A stretch of 64,000 bases of DNA from Escherichia coli O157 typing phage 7. Position 1 is the stretch's first letter, and each line of letters starts with the position of its first letter. Both the position numbers and the translations under genes were made by a program. Positions 33,796 to 63,504 of this stretch are shown piece by piece. The notes below the pieces were generated by a model. The model saw only the letters and a list, made by a program, of their open reading frames with translations. It did not search any database and had not been told where the DNA came from. Where the stretch lies: the sequence record KP869105; one strand, 5' to 3'.

Positions 33796-34084
33796 ATTTA
33801 CGGAATGAAATAAAAGCAGCAACTGAAGCAACAGAGGTTTCTTCAATATAAACCTCAATTTTTACCGGAGCTTCTGACTCAAATTTACCTGTTACTACAC
33901 CTTGGAAAATACTTTCAGTCTGTTCTGGCTTTGAAAAATTTTCAGAAGGAAAAATTCCGAACTTTTTATCTGTTCCAAAAATTTTGATAAATTCATCGTA
34001 AACTGCTTCATTGAAAGCGTTATCAGCGGGAATAACGCCTTCAACGACGAGTTCTTGACCTAAAAAGCGCAAAGAAGATTTCAT
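33794..34084 (-). CDS. hypothetical protein downstream of the alt genes
   Basis: 96 aa; GAGGA Shine-Dalgarno; own early promoter/stem-loop cassette upstream. Confidence 0.55.
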   Translation of the reverse strand: MKSSLRFLGQELVVEGVIPADNAFNEAVYDEFIKIFGTDKKFGIFPSENFSKPEQTESIFQGVVTGKFESEAPVKIEVYIEETSVASVAAFISFRK

Positions 34085-34092
34085 TTTGTGTT

Positions 34093-34145
34093 CCTCATGT
34101 TATGTCAGTAAGACTACTATAACACAACATGAGGGACTTGTAAAC
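34093..34145 (-). promoter_or_regulatory. T4-type early promoter with stem-loop (PeSL-like cassette), copy A
   Basis: Minus strand: GTTTAC, 17 nt, TTATAG-type -10; 9-bp inverted repeat CCTCATGTT/AACATGAGG around the -10; GAGGA Shine-Dalgarno follows. Confidence 0.6.
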
Positions 34146-41950: not shown

Positions 41951-42237
41951 CAGAACCTCATCTGAAAGCCATGTGATTTAACATTACCGCCGCCAATATC
42001 AGAAATATTAATTTCACGCGCAATTGAAGGGTCAATGTCAATTTCACGATTAAGTTTAGCGATAGCTAAAGTATCACGCCCATTTACTGTACGGAATTCT
42101 AAAGGACAAACCACATCAACATAATTTTTAATCGATTCACTGGTAGGTTGCAAATGAGCAGGAAGGTCTTTAGGCGCCTTAGAGAAAACAACTTCACAGA
42201 AATTTTTGCGGGTATCAAAATAAGTAGTCATAAACAT
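41950..42237 (-). CDS. hypothetical protein
   Basis: Track ORF (to 42288) trimmed to ATG at about 42237 (MFMTTYFDT...), preceded by GAGGAAA; the longer form would read through a GC hairpin. Confidence 0.5.
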   Translation of the reverse strand: MFMTTYFDTRKNFCEVVFSKAPKDLPAHLQPTSESIKNYVDVVCPLEFRTVNGRDTLAIAKLNREIDIDPSIAREINISDIGGGNVKSHGFQMRF

Positions 42238-42252
42238 AGTATTTTCCTCAGT

Positions 42253-42268
42253 AAGGGGCCGAAGCCCC
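42253..42268 (-). other. intergenic GC stem-loop
   Basis: AGGGGC-CGAA-GCCCCT between two small ORFs, just upstream of a GAGGAAA ribosome binding site. Confidence 0.4.
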
Positions 42269-42277
42269 TGTTTTATT

Positions 42278-42643
42278 TTAAATATCAAATTCGTTAAGAA
42301 CTACATCAAAGATTGCTTCAAGATGCTCAGGTTTAGCTCTGTTACTCAGAATATGACGAATCCAAGTTTTAACCAAAAGCTTGCGATTATCACCATTCCA
42401 GCAAGGATGAGTCCCTAAATCGCGTTGACGAAAATCATCATCCAGAGCGATTTTGAAGTTTGAACCTTCCATTGTGATTGAAACCGTGATGCCATTTTCA
42501 AATCGCATATAAACGTAGTTAGGAGTCATATACTGTTCAATTTCGCATACTGATCCATTTTGATGTTTCCAAAGGCAGATAGTATCAATAGAACCTGCAA
42601 TACCATTAGAAACATATTTACGTTCAAAGTTGATGTAGTTCAT
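42278..42643 (-). CDS. hypothetical protein
   Basis: 121 aa; early promoter/stem-loop upstream. Confidence 0.55.
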   Translation of the reverse strand: MNYINFERKYVSNGIAGSIDTICLWKHQNGSVCEIEQYMTPNYVYMRFENGITVSITMEGSNFKIALDDDFRQRDLGTHPCWNGDNRKLLVKTWIRHILSNRAKPEHLEAIFDVVLNEFDI

Positions 42644-42669
42644 TTTTATTCTCCGAGATGTTTAATTGC

Positions 42670-42709
42670 GGTACAGGTATATAATATCATATCCTGTACC
42701 AAAGTAAAC
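42670..42709 (-). promoter_or_regulatory. T4-type early promoter with stem-loop
   Basis: Minus strand: GTTTAC, 17 nt, TATTAT; inverted repeat GGTACAGG/CCTGTACC flanks the -10. Confidence 0.5.
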
Positions 42710-42711
42710 AA

Positions 42712-43044
42712 TTATTTTACTACTTTCCAGTGCTTCATGTCAAGTTTACCAACTTTTTTCATCTTCTCAATCAAACGTTCGGCACGTTGGCGAGCTGTAA
42801 CATAATACCATTCGCCTAATTCATTTTGTTCAATTTTTCCAACGATTACTGTATTCAATTCATAAATCCAACCAGTAAAGAAATTATGAACTTGAATTGT
42901 AAAGGTGAAATCTGTTCCCATACCTTCTGTTGTTTCTACTTCAATAATATCACCTTCAACTGCCATTAAGAACCACATAGTTTCATCATATTTACCATTG
43001 AAGCATTTAGTTTTAACTGCAGCGTTCAGATTAATCGTTTTCAT
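42712..43044 (-). CDS. hypothetical protein
   Basis: 110 aa; early promoter/stem-loop upstream; Shine-Dalgarno AAGGAG. Confidence 0.55.
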   Translation of the reverse strand: MKTINLNAAVKTKCFNGKYDETMWFLMAVEGDIIEVETTEGMGTDFTFTIQVHNFFTGWIYELNTVIVGKIEQNELGEWYYVTARQRAERLIEKMKKVGKLDMKHWKVVK

Positions 43045-43070
43045 TTTATTCTCCTTTGTTTGTGTAAGAT

Positions 43071-43110
43071 AATACTATCACAAAGGAACCATACTGTAAA
43101 CAACTTTGTG
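43071..43110 (-). promoter_or_regulatory. T4-type early promoter with stem-loop
   Basis: Minus strand: GTTTAC, 17 nt, ATAGTATTAT; inverted repeat CACAAAG/CTTTGTG. Confidence 0.5.
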
Positions 43111-43118
43111 CAATCTTT

Positions 43119-43150
43119 GGAAAATAAAAAAGGACTCCCGAAGGAGTCCT
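43119..43150 (-). terminator. intrinsic terminator after the basic small protein gene
   Basis: AGGACTCC-CGAA-GGAGTCCT hairpin with T-run on the minus strand. Confidence 0.6.
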
Positions 43151-43154
43151 CAAC

Positions 43155-43331
43155 TTATGCTTTCTGCTTACCAAAACGAGAAGCATCATCTCGAAGAACC
43201 GCACGTGCTCGGCGCATGATCTTCTCAACAGTTTGATTGATACGAGAGTTCGACCCACGCTTGTAACCAGCGCGTTTAGAATCACCAACTTTCTTTTCAA
43301 CTGCTTTCTTTGCTTTAACTTGTTTTGCCAT
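43155..43331 (-). CDS. small highly basic protein, likely nucleic-acid binding
   Basis: Track ORF trimmed to MAKQVKAKKAVEKKVGDSKRAGYKRG... (58 aa, K/R rich); followed by hairpin terminator 43131-43150. Confidence 0.5.
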   Translation of the reverse strand: MAKQVKAKKAVEKKVGDSKRAGYKRGSNSRINQTVEKIMRRARAVLRDDASRFGKQKA

Positions 43332-43620
43332 TATAAATTCTCTTTTAAATGAAAATGCAGGACTTATTGGCATTGCCTGCGCAAGCCCTCAAGGGGGAAC
43401 ATAGGTTTTGTATATTTACCGACAGGATAACCATAAACCTCGTCAACATACCACCAAGACTTACACAGATAACACTTTTCTGACGCATGATAGTAACATT
43501 CAAGAGGTACACCATAAAACTGCCGGGGTCTTAAAACTATAATGATTCGCAAATCATTAATCAGACAGTTCGATGGCTCCTCGATTTTAGCTCACACTAA
43601 GGCAGTGAATCTCCAATAAA

Positions 43621-43869
43621 TTACTTCAGTGTTACCACAAAGTGACGAACTGCTTTTCGTGCAGCAGAAGCCAGAGGCTTAGCATACTTAAGTTCATCTT
43701 TTTCCTGAAGCTCAGCAGCTAATGCAGTTTGAGCAGGATTTAGATGTTTGAAATAACGCAGGATTTCAAGAGCTTCGGCTTCAACATCAATAGATGCGCC
43801 ATAGTTTTCGTGACCATTATTCCATGCGTTTCGTTGCAGTTCAAGAGCGTGTTGTAATTGTTTAATCAT
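43621..43869 (-). CDS. rIII: rIII lysis inhibition accessory protein
   Basis: 82 aa as in T4 rIII; adjacent to gene 31 as in T4. Confidence 0.7.
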   Translation of the reverse strand: MIKQLQHALELQRNAWNNGHENYGASIDVEAEALEILRYFKHLNPAQTALAAELQEKDELKYAKPLASAARKAVRHFVVTLK

Positions 43870-44008
43870 TTAAAAATTCTCGTTAGAGATTAAAACTCGG
43901 TAGTCACGTTCTTCTGAATTTCATCTTCTTTCGACAGATCTCTCAGTTGTAGACTACCACATAGAATTGTTCGGTTAACTTATTATTCCGACACCCAATT
44001 CATATTAT

Positions 44009-44016
44009 TATTTATA
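44009..44016 (-). promoter_or_regulatory. candidate late promoter box on minus strand (rIII)
   Basis: Plus-strand TATTTATA immediately after the gene 31 stop, about 140 nt upstream of rIII. Confidence 0.4.
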
Positions 44017-44352
44017 TCACTTATAAAGACACGGAATAGCTTTATAGTGACAGGTAACGAATTTTTGTTTAATTTCTTTTGGCTGCTTAAGACCCAGAGC
44101 TACAAAAGGATGCGGAACGTTTCGAATTTGACCAACTGGAAGAGAAGTCAAATCACCAACTTCGCAGAAACCTTCAGGAACATCAGGACCGACAGAGTGA
44201 ACTACACATAGTTCAGGAACTTCACCTTGAACACGTTTACCGATAATAAGTCCTGATTCTGTAACTTCTTCATCACCGGCTTGTGCAGGTTCAGAAACTA
44301 AAATAACATATTCACCGACAGCACGAATTGGTAGCTGTTGTACTTCAGACAT
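44017..44352 (-). CDS. 31: co-chaperonin gp31 (GroES analogue for capsid folding)
   Basis: 111 aa; sequence [29 protein letters not shown]... as recalled for T4 gp31; MotA-type middle promoter upstream. Confidence 0.95.
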
Positions 44353-44382
44353 CGTTTTTCCTTTTTGTTAACAGATGAATTA

Positions 44383-44407
44383 ATAATAACAAATAATTCT
44401 TAAAGCA
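44383..44407 (-). promoter_or_regulatory. MotA-dependent middle promoter for gene 31
   Basis: Minus strand reads aaTGCTTTA, 12 nt, TATTAT, then leader to the gene 31 ATG. Confidence 0.55.
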
Positions 44408-44408
44408 T

Positions 44409-44717
44409 TTATTTACCAATAAATTGGAGTAAATGCTCAACTTTCATACCATTAACAGAAATCAATTTGTCAATAGAAAAACCTCGCCACTCGCCAAGCT
44501 CAACATCAAATACTGGAATCATATCAGTAGATTCTTTCCGAGCAGATTCAGTCAATTTACCAGTTTGCATGGTTGGCATAAAGTCAGCATCGCGAGTACC
44601 TTTCATAGTACGAATAGTACCATCAGACTTTTCAAAAACTACGTTTGAAATACCCATGGACAATTTAGTTTTCAAAATTTCACGAATTGCTACTTTCTGT
44701 TCAGTTATCAGTTTCAT
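44409..44717 (-). CDS. hypothetical protein (31.1 position)
   Basis: 102 aa between cd and 31. Confidence 0.6.
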   Translation of the reverse strand: MKLITEQKVAIREILKTKLSMGISNVVFEKSDGTIRTMKGTRDADFMPTMQTGKLTESARKESTDMIPVFDVELGEWRGFSIDKLISVNGMKVEHLLQFIGK

Positions 44718-44954
44718 TTATTTACCTATTACAGTTTTAATATGAGTTATTCCACGTTCTTTAAGGGTGGAAAGTAATTTTTGACATTTTTCTAAATCAG
44801 ATTTCCAACTATATGGTCTATCTATACTAGTCCAATCAGTTTTATAATACTGTTTCCATTTAGAGAAAAAATATTTCTTATACTCTACAGCAAACGAGAT
44901 GTTCTCGTTAGAATAAGAACTAATTGCTGTAAGCTTTACCAAACGAAATTTCAT
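44718..44954 (-). CDS. hypothetical protein (31.2 position)
   Basis: 78 aa. Confidence 0.55.
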   Translation of the reverse strand: MKFRLVKLTAISSYSNENISFAVEYKKYFFSKWKQYYKTDWTSIDRPYSWKSDLEKCQKLLSTLKERGITHIKTVIGK

Positions 44955-45535
44955 TATTCACCACAGAATTCGTTGATATTTTCCCAGTTTAACTTATTCA
45001 AGTTTTTCTTAGGAACATTAAACACTTCAATACCTGCATTTCGCAGAATATCATCCCAGCCAGGTTTATTTTTATCGTATGTTTCGCAATAAACCAGTTT
45101 TTTAATACCAGATTGAGCTATCGCTTTTGCACAATCTGGACAAGGAGAAAGTGTTACATACATAGTAGCACCTTCAATAGAAGAACCATTTCGTGCAGCA
45201 AACAAAATTGCATTTAGTTCAGCATGAATTTCATTTTTAGACGACCATTCAGAGTGAGCGCTCCGGTGTTCTTTTGCCAAGACAAAACGATCAGTTGAAC
45301 CAAATGATACACATTCGGGCTTATGACCTTGGATGATAGTATGTTTAGGCTTATTCAGCAACCAACCTTGCTCAGCAGCATAATCACAACAGTTCACACC
45401 ACCAGCAGGTGAACCATTATATCCGGTAGAAATAATACGTCCATTCTTTTCAATTACTGCTCCTACCTTCCAGGAGCAACATTTTGATTCCTGCGATACT
45501 AAATATGCAATTTGAAGTACTGTACTCGCTTTCAT
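44954..45535 (-). CDS. cd: dCMP deaminase
   Basis: 193 aa as in T4 Cd; zinc-binding deaminase motifs HAELNAI and SPCPDCAKA. Confidence 0.9.
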   Translation of the reverse strand: MKASTVLQIAYLVSQESKCCSWKVGAVIEKNGRIISTGYNGSPAGGVNCCDYAAEQGWLLNKPKHTIIQGHKPECVSFGSTDRFVLAKEHRSAHSEWSSKNEIHAELNAILFAARNGSSIEGATMYVTLSPCPDCAKAIAQSGIKKLVYCETYDKNKPGWDDILRNAGIEVFNVPKKNLNKLNWENINEFCGE

Positions 45536-45870
45536 TTCATAATCACCAGATAAGCAGATTTAGCAGTTTCAACACGATAAATTTCGTGACGAAGTTTAGT
45601 TATACTTTTAATAACAGAACTAATTATATTCTGCCCATCTTTAAAGCGGTTTTTCTTATCAATAAAAATTGCGCCAACCATCTTTTTGTGAAGCTCAACT
45701 GGATACTTCGTCACAATAATAGCATCATATACGGAAGGATGAATACTATTTACTAGAGTGTCATTCATTAAAGTTATTCTAATGAACTGTGCTGTTTCAG
45801 AGTCAAGCGCTCTATGATCGCCAGTATCATTTTCAAGACAATTATCAATTATATCAGTTAAATTCATCAT
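45532..45870 (-). CDS. hypothetical protein (cd.1 position)
   Basis: 112 aa, ATGA-coupled. Confidence 0.5.
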   Translation of the reverse strand: MMNLTDIIDNCLENDTGDHRALDSETAQFIRITLMNDTLVNSIHPSVYDAIIVTKYPVELHKKMVGAIFIDKKNRFKDGQNIISSVIKSITKLRHEIYRVETAKSAYLVIMK

Positions 45871-46106
45871 AGTACGCCATACACCCTTTGTGCTTCAACT
45901 AATCCATCAAAATCTAATTTAAGATGCGATATTTGATCGCCATCACCTGGATTCACAATTACTAATACTGAACGAGGAGTTTCAGTAATAACACGAACCG
46001 ATGTTTCAGGAAATCGTTCAGAAACCTTATTTACCAATTCCTGTGCAAATAGCTTAACTTTTTCTTGGAATTCTTTAACAGTAATCGGTTTTTCACTTAG
46101 CAGCAT
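45867..46106 (-). CDS. hypothetical protein (cd.2 position)
   Basis: 79 aa; early promoter/stem-loop upstream. Confidence 0.5.
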   Translation of the reverse strand: MLLSEKPITVKEFQEKVKLFAQELVNKVSERFPETSVRVITETPRSVLVIVNPGDGDQISHLKLDFDGLVEAQRVYGVL

Positions 46107-46127
46107 TTTGTTTTCCTCATTTGTTTT

Positions 46128-46166
46128 GGTAGAGCTATAATATCACAACTCTACCGTAAAGTAAAC
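46128..46166 (-). promoter_or_regulatory. T4-type early promoter with stem-loop
   Basis: Minus strand: GTTTAC, 17 nt, TATTAT; inverted repeat GGTAGAG/CTCTACC flanks the -10. Confidence 0.5.
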
Positions 46167-46168
46167 TA

Positions 46169-46474
46169 TTAAATTGCTTTGAATTCTGATGTCTGTGATT
46201 CAAAACGAATGTCGCCTTTGATAACTAGCTCAGCATCAAGACCGAATACAACAATGATATGCGCGGAACCTGGATACAACGTGATGGCAACAGAATCCAC
46301 CTGGTCTGGAAGCAAAGTGTTCAATACATGAGTCACTTGAGCATGAATTCGAAGCTCGGCTGCGTTATCAAGCTTTTCAAACATATTATTAGCGATAATT
46401 TGACTAAACACTACTTCTACAATTTTAGAATAAGTCGGAAACATATTTACCTCACATAATTTTCTTCGAGCCAA
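46169..46474 (-). CDS. hypothetical protein
   Basis: 101 aa. Confidence 0.5.
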   Translation of the reverse strand: MARRKLCEVNMFPTYSKIVEVVFSQIIANNMFEKLDNAAELRIHAQVTHVLNTLLPDQVDSVAITLYPGSAHIIVVFGLDAELVIKGDIRFESQTSEFKAI

Positions 46475-46647
46475 TCAATAACATCCAACGCATTATCAAA
46501 AGTTGAACCATCTACTTTGTCTTCTGTTTCATAATCAAGAACATCTAAACCTACTCTTCCATCAACAATAGGCCATAAACAAAATAGATATTTCTTTTCT
46601 TTTTCAATTTTATCACAAAGACGATAAATCTTTTCTATGTTATTCAT
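46447..46647 (-). CDS. hypothetical protein
   Basis: 66 aa. Confidence 0.5.
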   Translation of the reverse strand: MNNIEKIYRLCDKIEKEKKYLFCLWPIVDGRVGLDVLDYETEDKVDGSTFDNALDVIDWLEENYVR

Positions 46648-46836
46648 AAGTTTTCCATGGTAAAGGCAGTTTAGTTTTCTTTACTGTTAGTTCAACATCA
46701 GGATTCTTTTCTCTTAATTTAAGGCATTCCTCCCAAGCTCTGATTTCACTAGTGAATACACAAAATTGCCCATTACTAGTACCGACTAAACCACTATTTA
46801 CAATAATAATAGCCCAAGTTTCATGATGCCACGCCA

Positions 46837-46837
<1 letters not shown>
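46640..46837 (-). CDS. hypothetical protein
   Basis: Track ORF trimmed to ATG at 46837 (MAWHHETW...), which overlaps the pseT stop by one base. Confidence 0.45.
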
Positions 46838-48037
<1,200 letters not shown>

Positions 48038-48914: not shown

Positions 48915-49411
48915 AAAGTTTTAATAACCTCTATAATATCGTCTTGAGAAAGACCGTTAATTAAAATATGATGTTCAGCCGGAGATTTAGAAATTTTAAA
49001 GCACGCCGCAACATCTTCTGCCATATCCGATGCGCTACGATTTGGATTACTAATTCCAAGACGATGCTTTCCTGTCAAAGGATTAACGATGATATAGCAT
49101 TTGCAGCTATTGATATGAACATTAGGTTGAGTCTGATTAATAAACACTTCACAATCATACTTAGCGAGTTGATTTTCTAAAAAGACTTTCATCTCCTCAA
49201 CCGCATCAGGAAGCATATCACGGGCTTGCTCAAGACGACGATTTCGATATTCTTTAATGGTCGTTTTCCGCTTGACTTGCTTAGCTAAATCTTTCTTAAG
49301 ATCGGTGATATATCCAACTCGACGATTTCCTTTGAATACAGAAATCCCATCTGTAGTATCACCGTATGCTTCAACGACCATTTCAGTAGTAATAAGCTGC
49401 AAATCCATCAT
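48905..49411 (-). CDS. alc: Alc (unfolds host nucleoid, blocks host transcription)
   Basis: 168 aa from first ATG (167 from second, matching recalled T4 Alc length); position between spanins and rnlA. Confidence 0.75.
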   Translation of the reverse strand: MMDLQLITTEMVVEAYGDTTDGISVFKGNRRVGYITDLKKDLAKQVKRKTTIKEYRNRRLEQARDMLPDAVEEMKVFLENQLAKYDCEVFINQTQPNVHINSCKCYIIVNPLTGKHRLGISNPNRSASDMAEDVAACFKISKSPAEHHILINGLSQDDIIEVIKTLCM

Positions 49412-49416
49412 AAAGT

Positions 49417-49469
49417 CCTCATGTTATGTCAGTAAGATTACTATAACACAACACGAGGGACTTGTAAAC
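49417..49469 (-). promoter_or_regulatory. T4-type early promoter with stem-loop (PeSL-like cassette), copy B, upstream of alc
   Basis: 51 of 53 nt identical to copy A, including GTTTAC, -10 and leader. Confidence 0.6.
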
Positions 49470-55137: not shown

Positions 55138-55998
55138 TTACACCGCCATCTTTCCTTTAATAGGAGGATGTGATTCATAGTTGTTAAGAACAAAATTATG
55201 AGGCTTTGCAAATTGACTCAACCAAAATACCTGCGATTCTGTGTCCCATTCATCAAATTCATCTGGAAATTTTAATTGTAATTCGCATAAATCCATAGGT
55301 TCACGACATAAAATTTCTTTACATTGTTCTACGTGATTCATATAGATATGAGTATTACCACCAGAAAATATCAAATCTCCCGGAATAAGATTACACATCT
55401 TAGCTACAATATGAACTAACGTAGCATATGATGCAATATTAAATGGAAGACCGAGGAAAACATCTACCGAACGTTGATACCACTGAAGGTCAAGGTATCC
55501 ATTACGCACATTAAACTGATAGAACATATGACAAGGCGGTAATGCCATATATTTAAGTTCAGCTGGATTCCACGCAGAAACAATTTGACGCCTATCATTT
55601 GGCAGTTTTTTAATACGATCAATAACTTCTATAATTTGATCTACACCGCCAAAATCACGCCACTGTTTTCCATAAATTGGACCAAGTTCACCGCTATGGT
55701 ATCCTAAATCTTTTGCTTGATTTTCGTAATTTTCATCCCAGACTGTTTTGCCTTGAATTAATGAATCATGTTGAATTAATCGCAAATCATTGACATTTGT
55801 GCTTCCTGATAAAAACCATATTAGCTCAGCAATGCATGCATTCCAGGCGAGCTTTTTAGTTGTTACTGCAGGAAAACCTTTGGTTAAATCCCAACGCAAT
55901 TTAGTACCGAACAAAGCAATTGTTCCTGTGCCCGTTCGGTCATCGGTTTCATAGCCATTTTCAAAAATGTCTTTAATTAAATCTTGGTATTGTTTCAT
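55138..55998 (-). CDS. td: thymidylate synthase, uninterrupted
   Basis: 286 aa continuous ORF; TS active-site region [11 protein letters not shown]; no intron. Confidence 0.95.
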
Positions 55999-56410: not shown

Positions 56411-57369
<959 letters not shown>

Positions 57370-57422
57370 TTTTTAAAGCATTGCATAATAGAATTCATCA
57401 TTCATAAACTCAAATACAAAAA

Positions 57423-57792: not shown

Positions 57793-58032
57793 TCACGCTT
57801 TCTTAGCGACTTTCCAGTCAGCTTTAAATTGGTCAACGTCAGAGTGATGAATCCAGAAACCAGATGAGCTACCATCTTCATAAAGAGGACAACCATCACA
57901 CTCATCTTCCCATCCCATATCACGTAAAAGATGTTCAGCTTTTTCAATGAGTTCAGAATCTTTACCGATGATATTAAAATACCATTTACCTCTAACTTCT
58001 GAATCTTTGATGCTCTGGCGTTGTAATCTCAT
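57793..58032 (-). CDS. hypothetical protein
   Basis: Track ORF trimmed to ATG at 58032 (MRLQRQSIKD...), preceded by GAGGAG; 79 aa; early promoter/stem-loop upstream. Confidence 0.5.
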   Translation of the reverse strand: MRLQRQSIKDSEVRGKWYFNIIGKDSELIEKAEHLLRDMGWEDECDGCPLYEDGSSSGFWIHHSDVDQFKADWKVAKKA

Positions 58033-58053
58033 TTTATTCTCCTCAAGTTGATA

Positions 58054-58088
58054 GGGTAATAGTATCACACTACTACCCTGTTGTAAAC
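58054..58088 (-). promoter_or_regulatory. T4-type early promoter with stem-loop
   Basis: Minus strand: GTTTAC, 17 nt, ATACTA; imperfect inverted repeat GGGTAGTAG/CTATTACCC. Confidence 0.45.
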
Positions 58089-59016: not shown

Positions 59017-59108
59017 ATTATTTTCCTCTTTAATCATCAGCAGTATTGCCGATAGTTGTATAGTACCATGGAAGGACAAGGATGTAAACAGTTTTGTGAA
59101 AAAATTTT

Positions 59109-59139
59109 TGAAAATAAAAAAGGGGACCTCTAGGGTCCC
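59109..59139 (-). terminator. intrinsic terminator after gene 32
   Basis: GGGGACC-CTCTA-GGGTCCCC hairpin with TTTTTTATTTT on the minus strand. Confidence 0.65.
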
Positions 59140-59163
59140 CAATTAATTAGTAATTATAATCTA

Positions 59164-62851: not shown

Positions 62852-62861
62852 NNNNNNNNNN
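62852..62861. other. assembly gap (10 N)
   Basis: Run of n in the sequence. Confidence 0.95.
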
Positions 62862-63004: not shown

Positions 63005-63014
63005 NNNNNNNNNN
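63005..63014. other. assembly gap (10 N)
   Basis: Run of n. Confidence 0.95.
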
Positions 63015-63157: not shown

Positions 63158-63167
63158 NNNNNNNNNN
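63158..63167. other. assembly gap (10 N)
   Basis: Run of n. Confidence 0.95.
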
Positions 63168-63404: not shown

Positions 63405-63504
63405 NNNNNNNNNNNNNNNNNNNNNNNNNNNNNNNNNNNNNNNNNNNNNNNNNNNNNNNNNNNNNNNNNNNNNNNNNNNNNNNNNNNNNNNNNNNNNNNN
63501 NNNN
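63405..63504. other. scaffold gap (100 N)
   Basis: Run of 100 n, the usual unknown-length gap placeholder. Confidence 0.95.

Follow-up and report, generated by a model that had tools for sequence, protein, structure and literature searches.

Introduction

In the phages RB49 and phi1, early promoters and stem-loops are combined into cassettes (early promoter stem-loops, PeSLs) that were proposed to drive the modular shuffling of genes (Arbiol 2010, PMC2839356). [quoted passage not shown] T-even analogues with weaker, AT-rich stems on T4 early promoters go back to the IP-locus elements of Repoila 1994, as that work is cited in PMC2839356, and the PeSL concept was later extended to the PST/T4 group with the consensus TTTACW-N17-TAYWAT (Comeau 2014, PMC4122927). 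Here we analyse elements of this kind in a stretch of 64,000 nucleotides (nt) from Escherichia coli O157 typing phage 7 (KP869105). This whole stretch is called the window below, and positions refer to it unless another record is named. On its minus strand, four early promoters in the intergenic gaps 5′ of 30.7, 30.8, cd.2 and frd.1 carry an inverted repeat in or around the -10.

The T4 early promoter consensus has GTTTAC at -36 to -31, TGn, and a -10 in which -11 is A and -7 is T; the upstream region is A-rich, and the promoters are sited 5′ to early genes and novel open reading frames (ORFs) (Hinton 2010, PMC2988021; Nolan 2006, PMC1524935). Neither of these two descriptions mentions complementarity between the promoter spacer and the leader. 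The T4 reviews consulted likewise contain no mention of spacer-leader hairpins at early promoters, nor of one at regB. A promoter inside a hairpin is known, however, from the T4 genes e, soc, 49 and I-TevI, where the hairpin sequesters the Shine-Dalgarno sequence (SD), such that long transcripts are closed and short ones open (Uzan & Miller 2010, PMC3014915).

Over window bases 42000-47000 the identity to Escherichia phage wV7 (NC_019505.1/HM997020; Tequatrovirus) is 100%, and hundreds of T4-like coliphages are 97-99% identical there. A window coordinate equals the wV7 record coordinate minus 85054, and genome-wide counts were obtained from the whole wV7 genome rebuilt out of its record. Both the T4 early promoter family and PeSL-type cassettes are already known, and the value of the present analysis is confirmatory in this respect: PeSL architecture and breakpoint behaviour hold in wV7 and in a wider set of Tevenvirinae. 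What it adds are testable points, namely that the stems are a matter of sense-strand RNA, that they are specific to internal promoters, and that in about one third of the early promoters, including those of regB and alc, the SD would be buried on read-through RNA only.

T4-type early promoters in the window

At all four sites the minus strand carries GTTTAC and, after 17 or 18 nt, an extended -10 (TGnTAnnAT), and all four promoters are co-oriented with the downstream early gene on the early strand. The original prediction for this DNA, made from the letters alone, had described GTTTAC, a 17-nt spacer and a TATTAT-like -10. The motif holds, but the spacer is 17 nt only at the site whose -35 begins at 42709 and 18 nt at the other three (43101, 46166 and 58088); the description as 17 nt holds when TTTACN, aligned to TTGACA, is taken as the -35. 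Together with a further pair grouped with them at the time, which corresponds to the promoters of alt.-3 (34145) and alc (49469), the four sites fit the T4-type pattern of GTTTAC, 17-18 nt, and TGn plus TAnnnT. The A/T-rich, UP-like sequence 5′ of the -35 reads aaaataatt, cacaaagtt, caatttaata and caaaaataatt at the four sites.

The strict motif GTTTAC-N13-16-TGnTAnnnT has 7 matches in the window, all on the minus strand, where 0.28 are expected and none of 100 shuffles reaches 7; a looser pattern gives 9 matches against 3.2 expected. Across the wV7 genome, TTTAC-N13-16-TGnTAnnnT has 31 early-strand matches and a single one on the opposite strand, such that the recurrence on which the original prediction was built is borne out both locally and by strand. 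In contrast, a generic sigma-70 scan with TTGACA/TATAAT shows no enrichment (63 found, 74 expected), and the signature is thus specific to T4 early promoters. By sequence, the sites are T4-type early promoters with UP element, -35 GTTTAC, TGn and -10, whose activity is predicted, and the promoter itself does not differ from the T4 "uber" early promoter consensus.

The sites lie within the early-transcribed minus-strand block alt - 30 - 30.x - rIII - 31 - cd - pseT - alc - nrd - td - frd - 32. The site at 42709 occupies the gap between 30.8 and 30.7, that at 43101 the gap between the 30.9 terminator and 30.8, that at 46166 the gap between cd.3 and cd.2, and that at 58088 the gap between a JS98-like ORF (gp038) and frd.1. 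The T4 record names an early promoter, Pe133295, between cd.2 and cd.3, which is orthologous to the site at 46166. Promoter annotation in the deposited wV7 record is confined to two "promoter" features, both defined by the TTGACA consensus, and only a handful of terminators are marked; its approximately 30 GTTTAC/TGn early promoters all go unannotated.

Hairpins embedded in the promoters

We folded 30 wV7 GTTTAC promoters from the -35 to the ATG and compared each with 500 permutations of its variable spacer alone. A hairpin exceeds the permutations at p<0.05 in 15 of the 30 promoters and at p<=0.01 in 12 (Stouffer Z -12.7). The mean fold of cognate spacer and leader is -13.7 kcal/mol, as against -9.1 kcal/mol for chimeras (assignment permutation, p = 5e-5). 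The result was replicated in the corresponding regions of RB69 (Mosigvirus; 2 of 5 promoters, Z -4.7) and JS10 (Dhakavirus; 4 of 6, Z -7.9). The embedded inverted repeats are thus not chance, the spacer being complementary to the leader. An Rfam scan of the whole window gave no match at the gathering threshold.

One hairpin arm is located in the spacer and the other immediately past the -10 or on top of it, in keeping with the commonest PeSL positions (PMC2839356), and the composite layout is that of a PeSL, with upstream stop codon, AT-rich region, -35 and -10, stem-loop, SD and the ATG of the next gene. At 42709, 46166 and 58088 the upstream stop is 2 nt from the -35. According to whether the SD lies outside the stem or is buried in read-through RNA, we distinguish class A and class B.

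The P30.7 cassette (42644-42711, minus strand; class A) extends between the 30.8 stop and the 30.7 ATG. Its -35 GTTTAC (42709-42704) is followed by N17 with TGn, the -10 TATTAT (42686-42681) and the SD GGAG (42654-42651), and a perfect 8-bp repeat brackets the -10, with GGTACAGG (42700-42693) as 5′ arm and CCTGTACC (42677-42670), which straddles the inferred +1, as 3′ arm (z-score, z, -5.3, p 0.002 in the spacer permutation, as for the z values below). The Pcd.2 cassette (46104-46166, minus; class A) follows the cd.3 stop, with -35 GTTTAC at 46166-46161, N18, -10 TATTAT at 46142-46137, SD GAGG at 46118-46115 and ATG at 46106; its 9-bp stem with one G.U is formed by GGTAGAGTT (46155-46147) and AGCTCTACC (46136-46128; z -4.9). 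These two agree with the earlier description of a 7-9 bp repeat bracketing the -10 or the spacer, whereas the other two fit it in part. In the Pfrd.1 cassette (58030-58088, minus; class A; -35 GTTTAC 58088-58083, N18, ATG 58032) the stem is present, but it has 12 bp including two G.U, with a 5′ arm at 58079-58068, a UGA loop and a 3′ arm at 58064-58053 (z -3.2), and the -10 hexamer TACTAT (58064-58059) is within the 3′ arm and not in the loop. In the P30.8 cassette (43042-43101, minus; class B; -35 GTTTAC 43101-43096, N18, -10 TAGTAT 43077-43072, ATG 43044) the repeat originally picked was CCTTTGTG/CACAAA, whose 3′ arm at about 43064-43051 falls beyond the range then given. The best fold is a 9-bp stem between UUCCUUUGU (43088-43080) and ACAAAGGAG (43059-43051), the latter containing the SD (z -2.2, p 0.034).

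The promoters of alt.-3 (34084-34145, minus) and alc (49406-49469, minus) are both of class B, with z of -5.6 and -6.0; in Palt.-3 the stem is CCTCATGTTGTGT/ACATAACATGAGG, with the SD in the 3′ arm. Although 15 kb apart, Palc (49416-49469) and Palt.-3 (34092-34145) differ at only 2 of the 54 nt from GTTTAC to GAGGA, one difference turning an A-U into a G.U pair, and the -35 and the SD are the exact limits of their homology. In neither RB69 nor JS10 do the counterparts of these two promoters resemble each other. This pattern suggests that in the T4/wV7 lineage a cassette was replaced or gene conversion took place.

Conservation of the stems in relatives

The original prediction turned on whether the repeats are conserved in orthologous promoters. 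They are, in some cases by compensatory changes (RB69, JS10 and other genera). The stem between cd.3 and cd.2 reads GGTAGAGTT/AGCTCTACC in both wV7 and T4, GGTGGAGTT/AACTCTACC in RB69-type and GGTAGGACT/AGTCCTACC in JS-type phages. Across 9 different versions of this stem, 100% of the cells are paired and 3 pairs are changed on both sides, and the covariation score of 0.395 compares with 0.239 for shuffles, none of 500 shuffles reaching it. At frd.1 a hairpin is retained with three differing sequences and registers (wV7/T4, RB69 and JS10). RB69-like and VR5-like phages have exactly the 30.7 stem GGTACAGG/CCTGTACC, around a loop that is altered at several positions. In JS10, sequestration of the alc SD is retained by a differing sequence. 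The paralogous promoters at 55138 and 19410 of the wV7 record are 2 double and 5 wobble-compatible changes apart, and the SD-burying hairpins of the regB and denV promoters, which lie outside the window, covary across Tequatrovirus, Mosigvirus, Moonvirus and one Klebsiella phage. Additional relatives were sampled from IMG/VR, where protein-seeded searches gave 9 and 5 loci, and a DNA pattern scan gave 73 loci that were mostly unrelated chance matches, approximately 12 being useful.

A feature of the T4 record concerns the same cd.2 element. Positions 133300-133313 of NC_000866, which are orthologous to window 46137-46150, carry a misc_feature with the text [quoted passage not shown], and these 14 nt, TTGTGATATTATAG, are the exact loop between the arms GGTAGAG/CTCTACC. 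The match implies that the earlier T4 sequence had the -10-bearing loop flipped, whether by a mistake in the old sequencing or through a real inversion by template switching.

Read-through RNA and access to the Shine-Dalgarno sequence

The stems are rich in G.U pairs, and folds of the sense strand are more stable than those of the antisense strand, with minimum free energies of -13.7 and -10.2 kcal/mol, respectively (p = 0.0014). With composition controlled, z is -4.5 for the sense and -2.8 for the antisense strand in the significant set (p = 0.0006). G.U-rich stems and sense-strand bias together argue for transcribed RNA rather than a cruciform.

The hairpins are further linked to the position of the promoter in its transcription unit. 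Where the upstream stop codon lies within 20 nt of the -35, a significant hairpin is present in 12 of 17 promoters (mean z -3.6), as compared with 3 of 13 where the gap exceeds 20 nt (mean z -0.6; Spearman rho for stop distance against hairpin 0.60, p = 0.0005; Mann-Whitney p = 0.0005). With a canonical terminator upstream, 2 of 6 promoters have the hairpin, as against 13 of 24 otherwise, a borderline difference (p = 0.05). Stop proximity, the solid one of these two contrasts, and the presence of a terminator mark the embedded hairpins as a trait of internal promoters that are traversed by upstream transcription. The frd.3 early promoter (59089-59060, minus; element 59060-59140) exemplifies the unit-initial class: the gene 32 terminator (59140-59122, minus) lies directly 5′ of it, and it has no embedded hairpin (z 0.0).

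Promoters with a long AAAAATTTTTTCACAAAAC UP block also tend to be without the hairpin. A second early-promoter subfamily, at 164407, 160783, 144143, 67796, 51936, 25129 and 39430 of the wV7 record, has the common block AAAAATTTTTTCACAAAAC[GT]-GTTTACA...ATGGTACTAT-ACAACTATCAACTAC; its members are dispersed repeats of approximately 70-90 nt, found after terminators or in larger gaps, without an embedded hairpin.

In a scan for intrinsic terminators near the promoters, only two elements qualified, each just upstream of a promoter: the gene 32 terminator, and one at 43151-43130 (43130-43151, minus), 3′ of 30.9 and just upstream of P30.8, which consists of GAGGACTCC-TTCG-GGAGTCCTT followed by a T run and is annotated in the wV7 record. 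No embedded hairpin is followed by a U tract, and the possibility that these hairpins are intrinsic terminators was rejected for this reason.

Since the -10 of T4-type promoters spans -12 to -7 (Nolan 2006, PMC1524935), the 5′ arm always lies upstream of +1, and a promoter's own transcript therefore cannot form the hairpin. We took start sites to be 7 nt past the -10; the literature on T4 3′-end or transcription start site maps yielded nothing usable. Accessibility of the SD was then computed as the cost of opening the SD-AUG in the predicted fold of the read-through RNA as compared with the primary transcript. In nine promoters (class B) this cost is 10-19 kcal/mol higher in read-through RNA; they comprise 30.8 (43101; +11.8), alt.-3 (34145; +16.4), alc (49469; +18.6), regB, denV and four others. 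In class A the cost is essentially unchanged (-0.6 kcal/mol at 30.7, +2.8 at cd.2 and +3.1 at frd.1), and the promoters at 71563, 55138 and 19410 of the wV7 record also belong here. For class A we also considered a reverse switch, whereby the 3′ arm, when free, would pair with the SD in the primary transcript; it was rejected, accessibility being no different.

At regB (wV7 record 60327-60270) a 15-bp helix that covaries across four genera is formed between the promoter spacer and the SD of regB (AAGAGGAG). The regB gene is autoregulated via cleavage of that GGAG; the review consulted does not mention the hairpin.

Gene gain and loss at the cassettes

Breakpoints of gene content were compared case by case in SV76, ESh17, F26, JS10, T4 and IMG/VR contigs, and in these relatives they are found at cassette edges. 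The T2-type phage SV76 lacks 30.8; its P30.8 cassette is intact up to GGAGAATAAAAATG and then continues into 30.7, which places the crossover inside the SD-ATG string common to both cassettes. This is the single junction that can be pinned down, and the SD-ATG string, rather than the stem, is where it falls. In ESh17 a different ORF of 122 aa replaces 30.8, homology stopping just past the ATG and resuming at the stop codon and the P30.7 -35. F26 and JS10 lack both 30.8 and 30.7, and in them the 30.6 leader is joined to a promoter of the P30.8 type.

In VR5-like phages, 47-nt direct repeats flank 30.8 and represent the 3′ half of the P30.8 cassette and that of the P30.7 cassette, which makes 30.8 look like an excisable unit. 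In the VR5-like genomes from IMG/VR (L007-L011, at about 1455-1500 and 1850-1895) the repeat reads tatagacMtgtaccaaataatacgaaaacaaactggagaataaaatg. The sequence GGAGAATAAAATG, common to P30.8 and P30.7, is a direct repeat that could support excision.

At cd.2, two IMG/VR relatives and JS10 have an extra ORF of approximately 520 bp exactly between the cassette SD and the cd.2 ATG. At frd.1, the promoter and hairpin of T4 are the same but come immediately after frd.2, with an unannotated 22-codon ORF behind them, while in wV7 gp038 is inserted upstream and the mini-ORF is absent; the cassette thus appears as a conserved island of approximately 50 nt with breakpoints on both sides. The T4 mini-ORF (T4 146005-146142, between Pfrd.1 and frd.1) encodes MFAPYIMAAVMLVCLYLLIKAC, is hydrophobic and has its own SD. 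Many other indels of the region (homing endonucleases, gp055, gp040 and gp041) are away from these promoters.

Breakpoints and conserved repeats together support the proposal of the original prediction that these are modular cassettes delimiting variable gene units. That interpretation was correct, but it was already known from the published PeSLs (Arbiol 2010; Comeau 2014).

Discussion

Like the PeSLs of RB49 and phi1, the wV7 cassettes combine an intergenic AT-rich region, -35 and -10, a stem-loop and an SD-ATG, stand beside small ORFs whose function is unknown, and border the insertions, deletions and replacements by which close relatives differ. They differ in composition, since RB49 PeSLs have near-perfect TTGACA/TATAAT promoters and GC-rich GGGG...CCCC stems, whereas wV7 has GTTTAC/TGn and AT-rich stems with G.U. 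The activities of the RB49/phi1 elements are experimental, while the wV7 cassettes are known from sequence and predicted folds, and the description of the former contains neither SD burial nor a logic of RNA that acts on read-through transcripts only. With the PST/T4 PeSLs the cassettes share the phage group and promoter consensus, weak AT-rich stems, variable ORFs and deduced recombination events. The legend of the PST figure places stem-loops just upstream of the promoter (terminator, then promoter), which is the arrangement found in wV7 at 43130-43151 and 59122-59140. The embedded wV7 stems, in contrast, are inside the promoter, between spacer and leader.

The likeness to e, soc, 49 and I-TevI is that the 5′ strand of the helix lies upstream of the proximal start site, and it fits the promoters at 43101, 34145 and 49469 as well as those of regB and denV. 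Three of the four sites named in the original prediction (42709, 46166 and 58088) are unlike that system and leave the SD uncovered. Moreover, the proximal promoters of e, soc, 49 and I-TevI are late (gp55) and delay expression, whereas those of wV7 are sigma-70 early promoters, for which early-only or translation-coupled expression is predicted.

The explanation that we favour as a whole, and consider probable, is that these are T4-type early promoters with hairpins that form on read-through RNA only, in cassettes that serve as boundaries for gene swaps. In the hairpin-bearing subclass, the variable part of the spacer would pair with the leader just past the -10, and since this can happen only in RNA arriving from an upstream promoter, the hairpin would mark the origin of the transcript. 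In class B (30.8, alc and alt.-3, and elsewhere regB and denV) read-through copies would be closed to ribosomes, with translation blocked or coupled, and promoter-proximal early transcripts would be open. The GGAG of read-through copies would probably also be shielded from RegB, which cuts GGAG; this is proposed because RegB is inhibited by secondary structure. In class A (30.7, cd.2 and frd.1), where the 3′ arm ends before the SD, the hairpin is most likely an intercistronic attenuator or a stability or processing element, attenuation or stabilisation having been shown for PeSL stem-loops in RB49/phi1, and its role is uncertain. The cassette would extend from the UP element through promoter and hairpin to the SD-ATG; as a short conserved island common to many gaps, it would also be a boundary, and sometimes a recombination substrate, for the gain, loss and swap of small ORFs.

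Several points weigh against this explanation. Half of the wV7 early promoters have no such hairpin, and many of the promoters are paralogous, such that the 30 fold tests are not independent. The covariation is based on few independent lineages, and the P30.8 pairing is lost in RB69-like and VR5-like phages, where P30.8 bears a copy of the P30.7 3′ half in place of the hairpin. The start sites are assumed ones. Because SD accessibility is unchanged at 30.7, cd.2 and frd.1, the function of the hairpin there is a guess, and the lack of a U tract after any embedded hairpin weakens the attenuator part. Finally, intergenic breakpoints are partly expected from purifying selection alone.

Attenuation could also be the whole story, class B included, if the hairpins were attenuators or terminators of upstream read-through that overlap the next promoter for lack of space. 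Such a function was assigned to PeSL stem-loops by their discoverers, with the effect of PeSL211/210 on lacZ as evidence, and it would agree with the occurrence of the hairpins at internal promoters and their tendency to be absent where a canonical terminator precedes. But no U tract follows any of them and none scores as terminator-like; in addition, the AT-rich stems with G.U are unlike the polyG/polyC stems tested in RB49, and the covarying positions of class B track the SD region specifically; we consider this account unlikely. We give slightly less credence to the idea that the hairpins are elements of mRNA processing or stability, the AU-rich UP stretch and the hairpin forming an RNase E-type site that would protect the upstream 3′ or the downstream 5′ end. 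It would accommodate the sense-strand RNA bias, the position right after the upstream stop codon, and the fact that polycistronic T4 mRNAs are processed by RNase E and RegB, with exonucleases entering at new 3′ ends, but it leaves unexplained why the 3′ arm so frequently coincides exactly with the SD.

An action of the repeats as DNA, be it as cruciform or hairpin targets of recombination, in the control of promoter melting, or in flipping of the -10 loop, would account for breakpoints at the cassettes. The PeSL authors speculated on a recombination protein that binds the stem and mapped one mini-circle crossover to a loop (PMC2839356), and an earlier version of the T4 sequence gave the 14 nt between the cd.2 arms in inverted-complement form. 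However, many of the G.U pairs would be A.C mismatches on the other strand, while the sense strand is significantly favoured. Loops of 10-20 nt with stems of 7-12 bp make poor cruciforms, the stems share no sequence, the SV76 junction lies outside the stem, and the old T4 inversion may be a sequencing error, so a DNA-level role appears improbable. Least credible of all, and in our estimate very improbable, is that the repeats are a by-product of chance or composition, or else palindromic repressor operators. AT-rich sequence with a near-palindromic -10 readily gives short repeats, and the original prediction had taken 4 of the 7-9 motif matches in the window, but chance is rejected by the spacer permutation, chimera and covariation tests. 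The palindromic operator was rejected as well: the arms differ completely between sites (GGTACAGG, GGTAGAGTT, AGGGTAGTAGTG, CCTCATGTT), so that there is no common operator.

Going beyond read-through-only hairpins at individual genes, one may ask whether T-even phages have a genome-wide RNA system that reads transcript origin, with ribosome binding sites open on immediate-early RNA and closed on read-through (delayed-early or middle-mode) RNA, or opened there only by upstream translation. We offer this tentatively, as somewhat less than an even bet. The idea was not found in the T4 reviews consulted. If it were true, translation of regB, alc, denV, alt.-3 and 30.8 would be shut off once the early promoters go silent, which could account for the sharp fall of early protein synthesis. 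Read-through copies would be RegB-resistant, contributing to the differential RegB sensitivity of early and middle mRNAs. Confirmation would thus extend the mechanism of e, soc, 49 and I-TevI to early promoters, and would bear on the abrupt stop of early protein synthesis and on the sparing of middle transcripts by RegB. For phage engineering, the cassettes mark natural junctions at which small genes can be swapped.

Further observations

Runs of N occur in the gene 34 (proximal tail fibre) region of the window, at 62852-62861, 63005-63014, 63158-63167 and 63405-63504 (10, 10, 10 and 100 bases), and the flanks of the third run are duplicated. They have the appearance of gaps left by the assembly of the deposited wV7 record.

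In the gap between gp040 and gp041, the minus strand at 57364-57386 has a hairpin, ATGCAAT-GCTTTAAAA-ATTGCAT, with a MotA-box-like TGCTT and, 11 nt later, TAGTCT. By analogy with the "PmSL" elements of phage nt-1, this may be a middle promoter inside a stem-loop.

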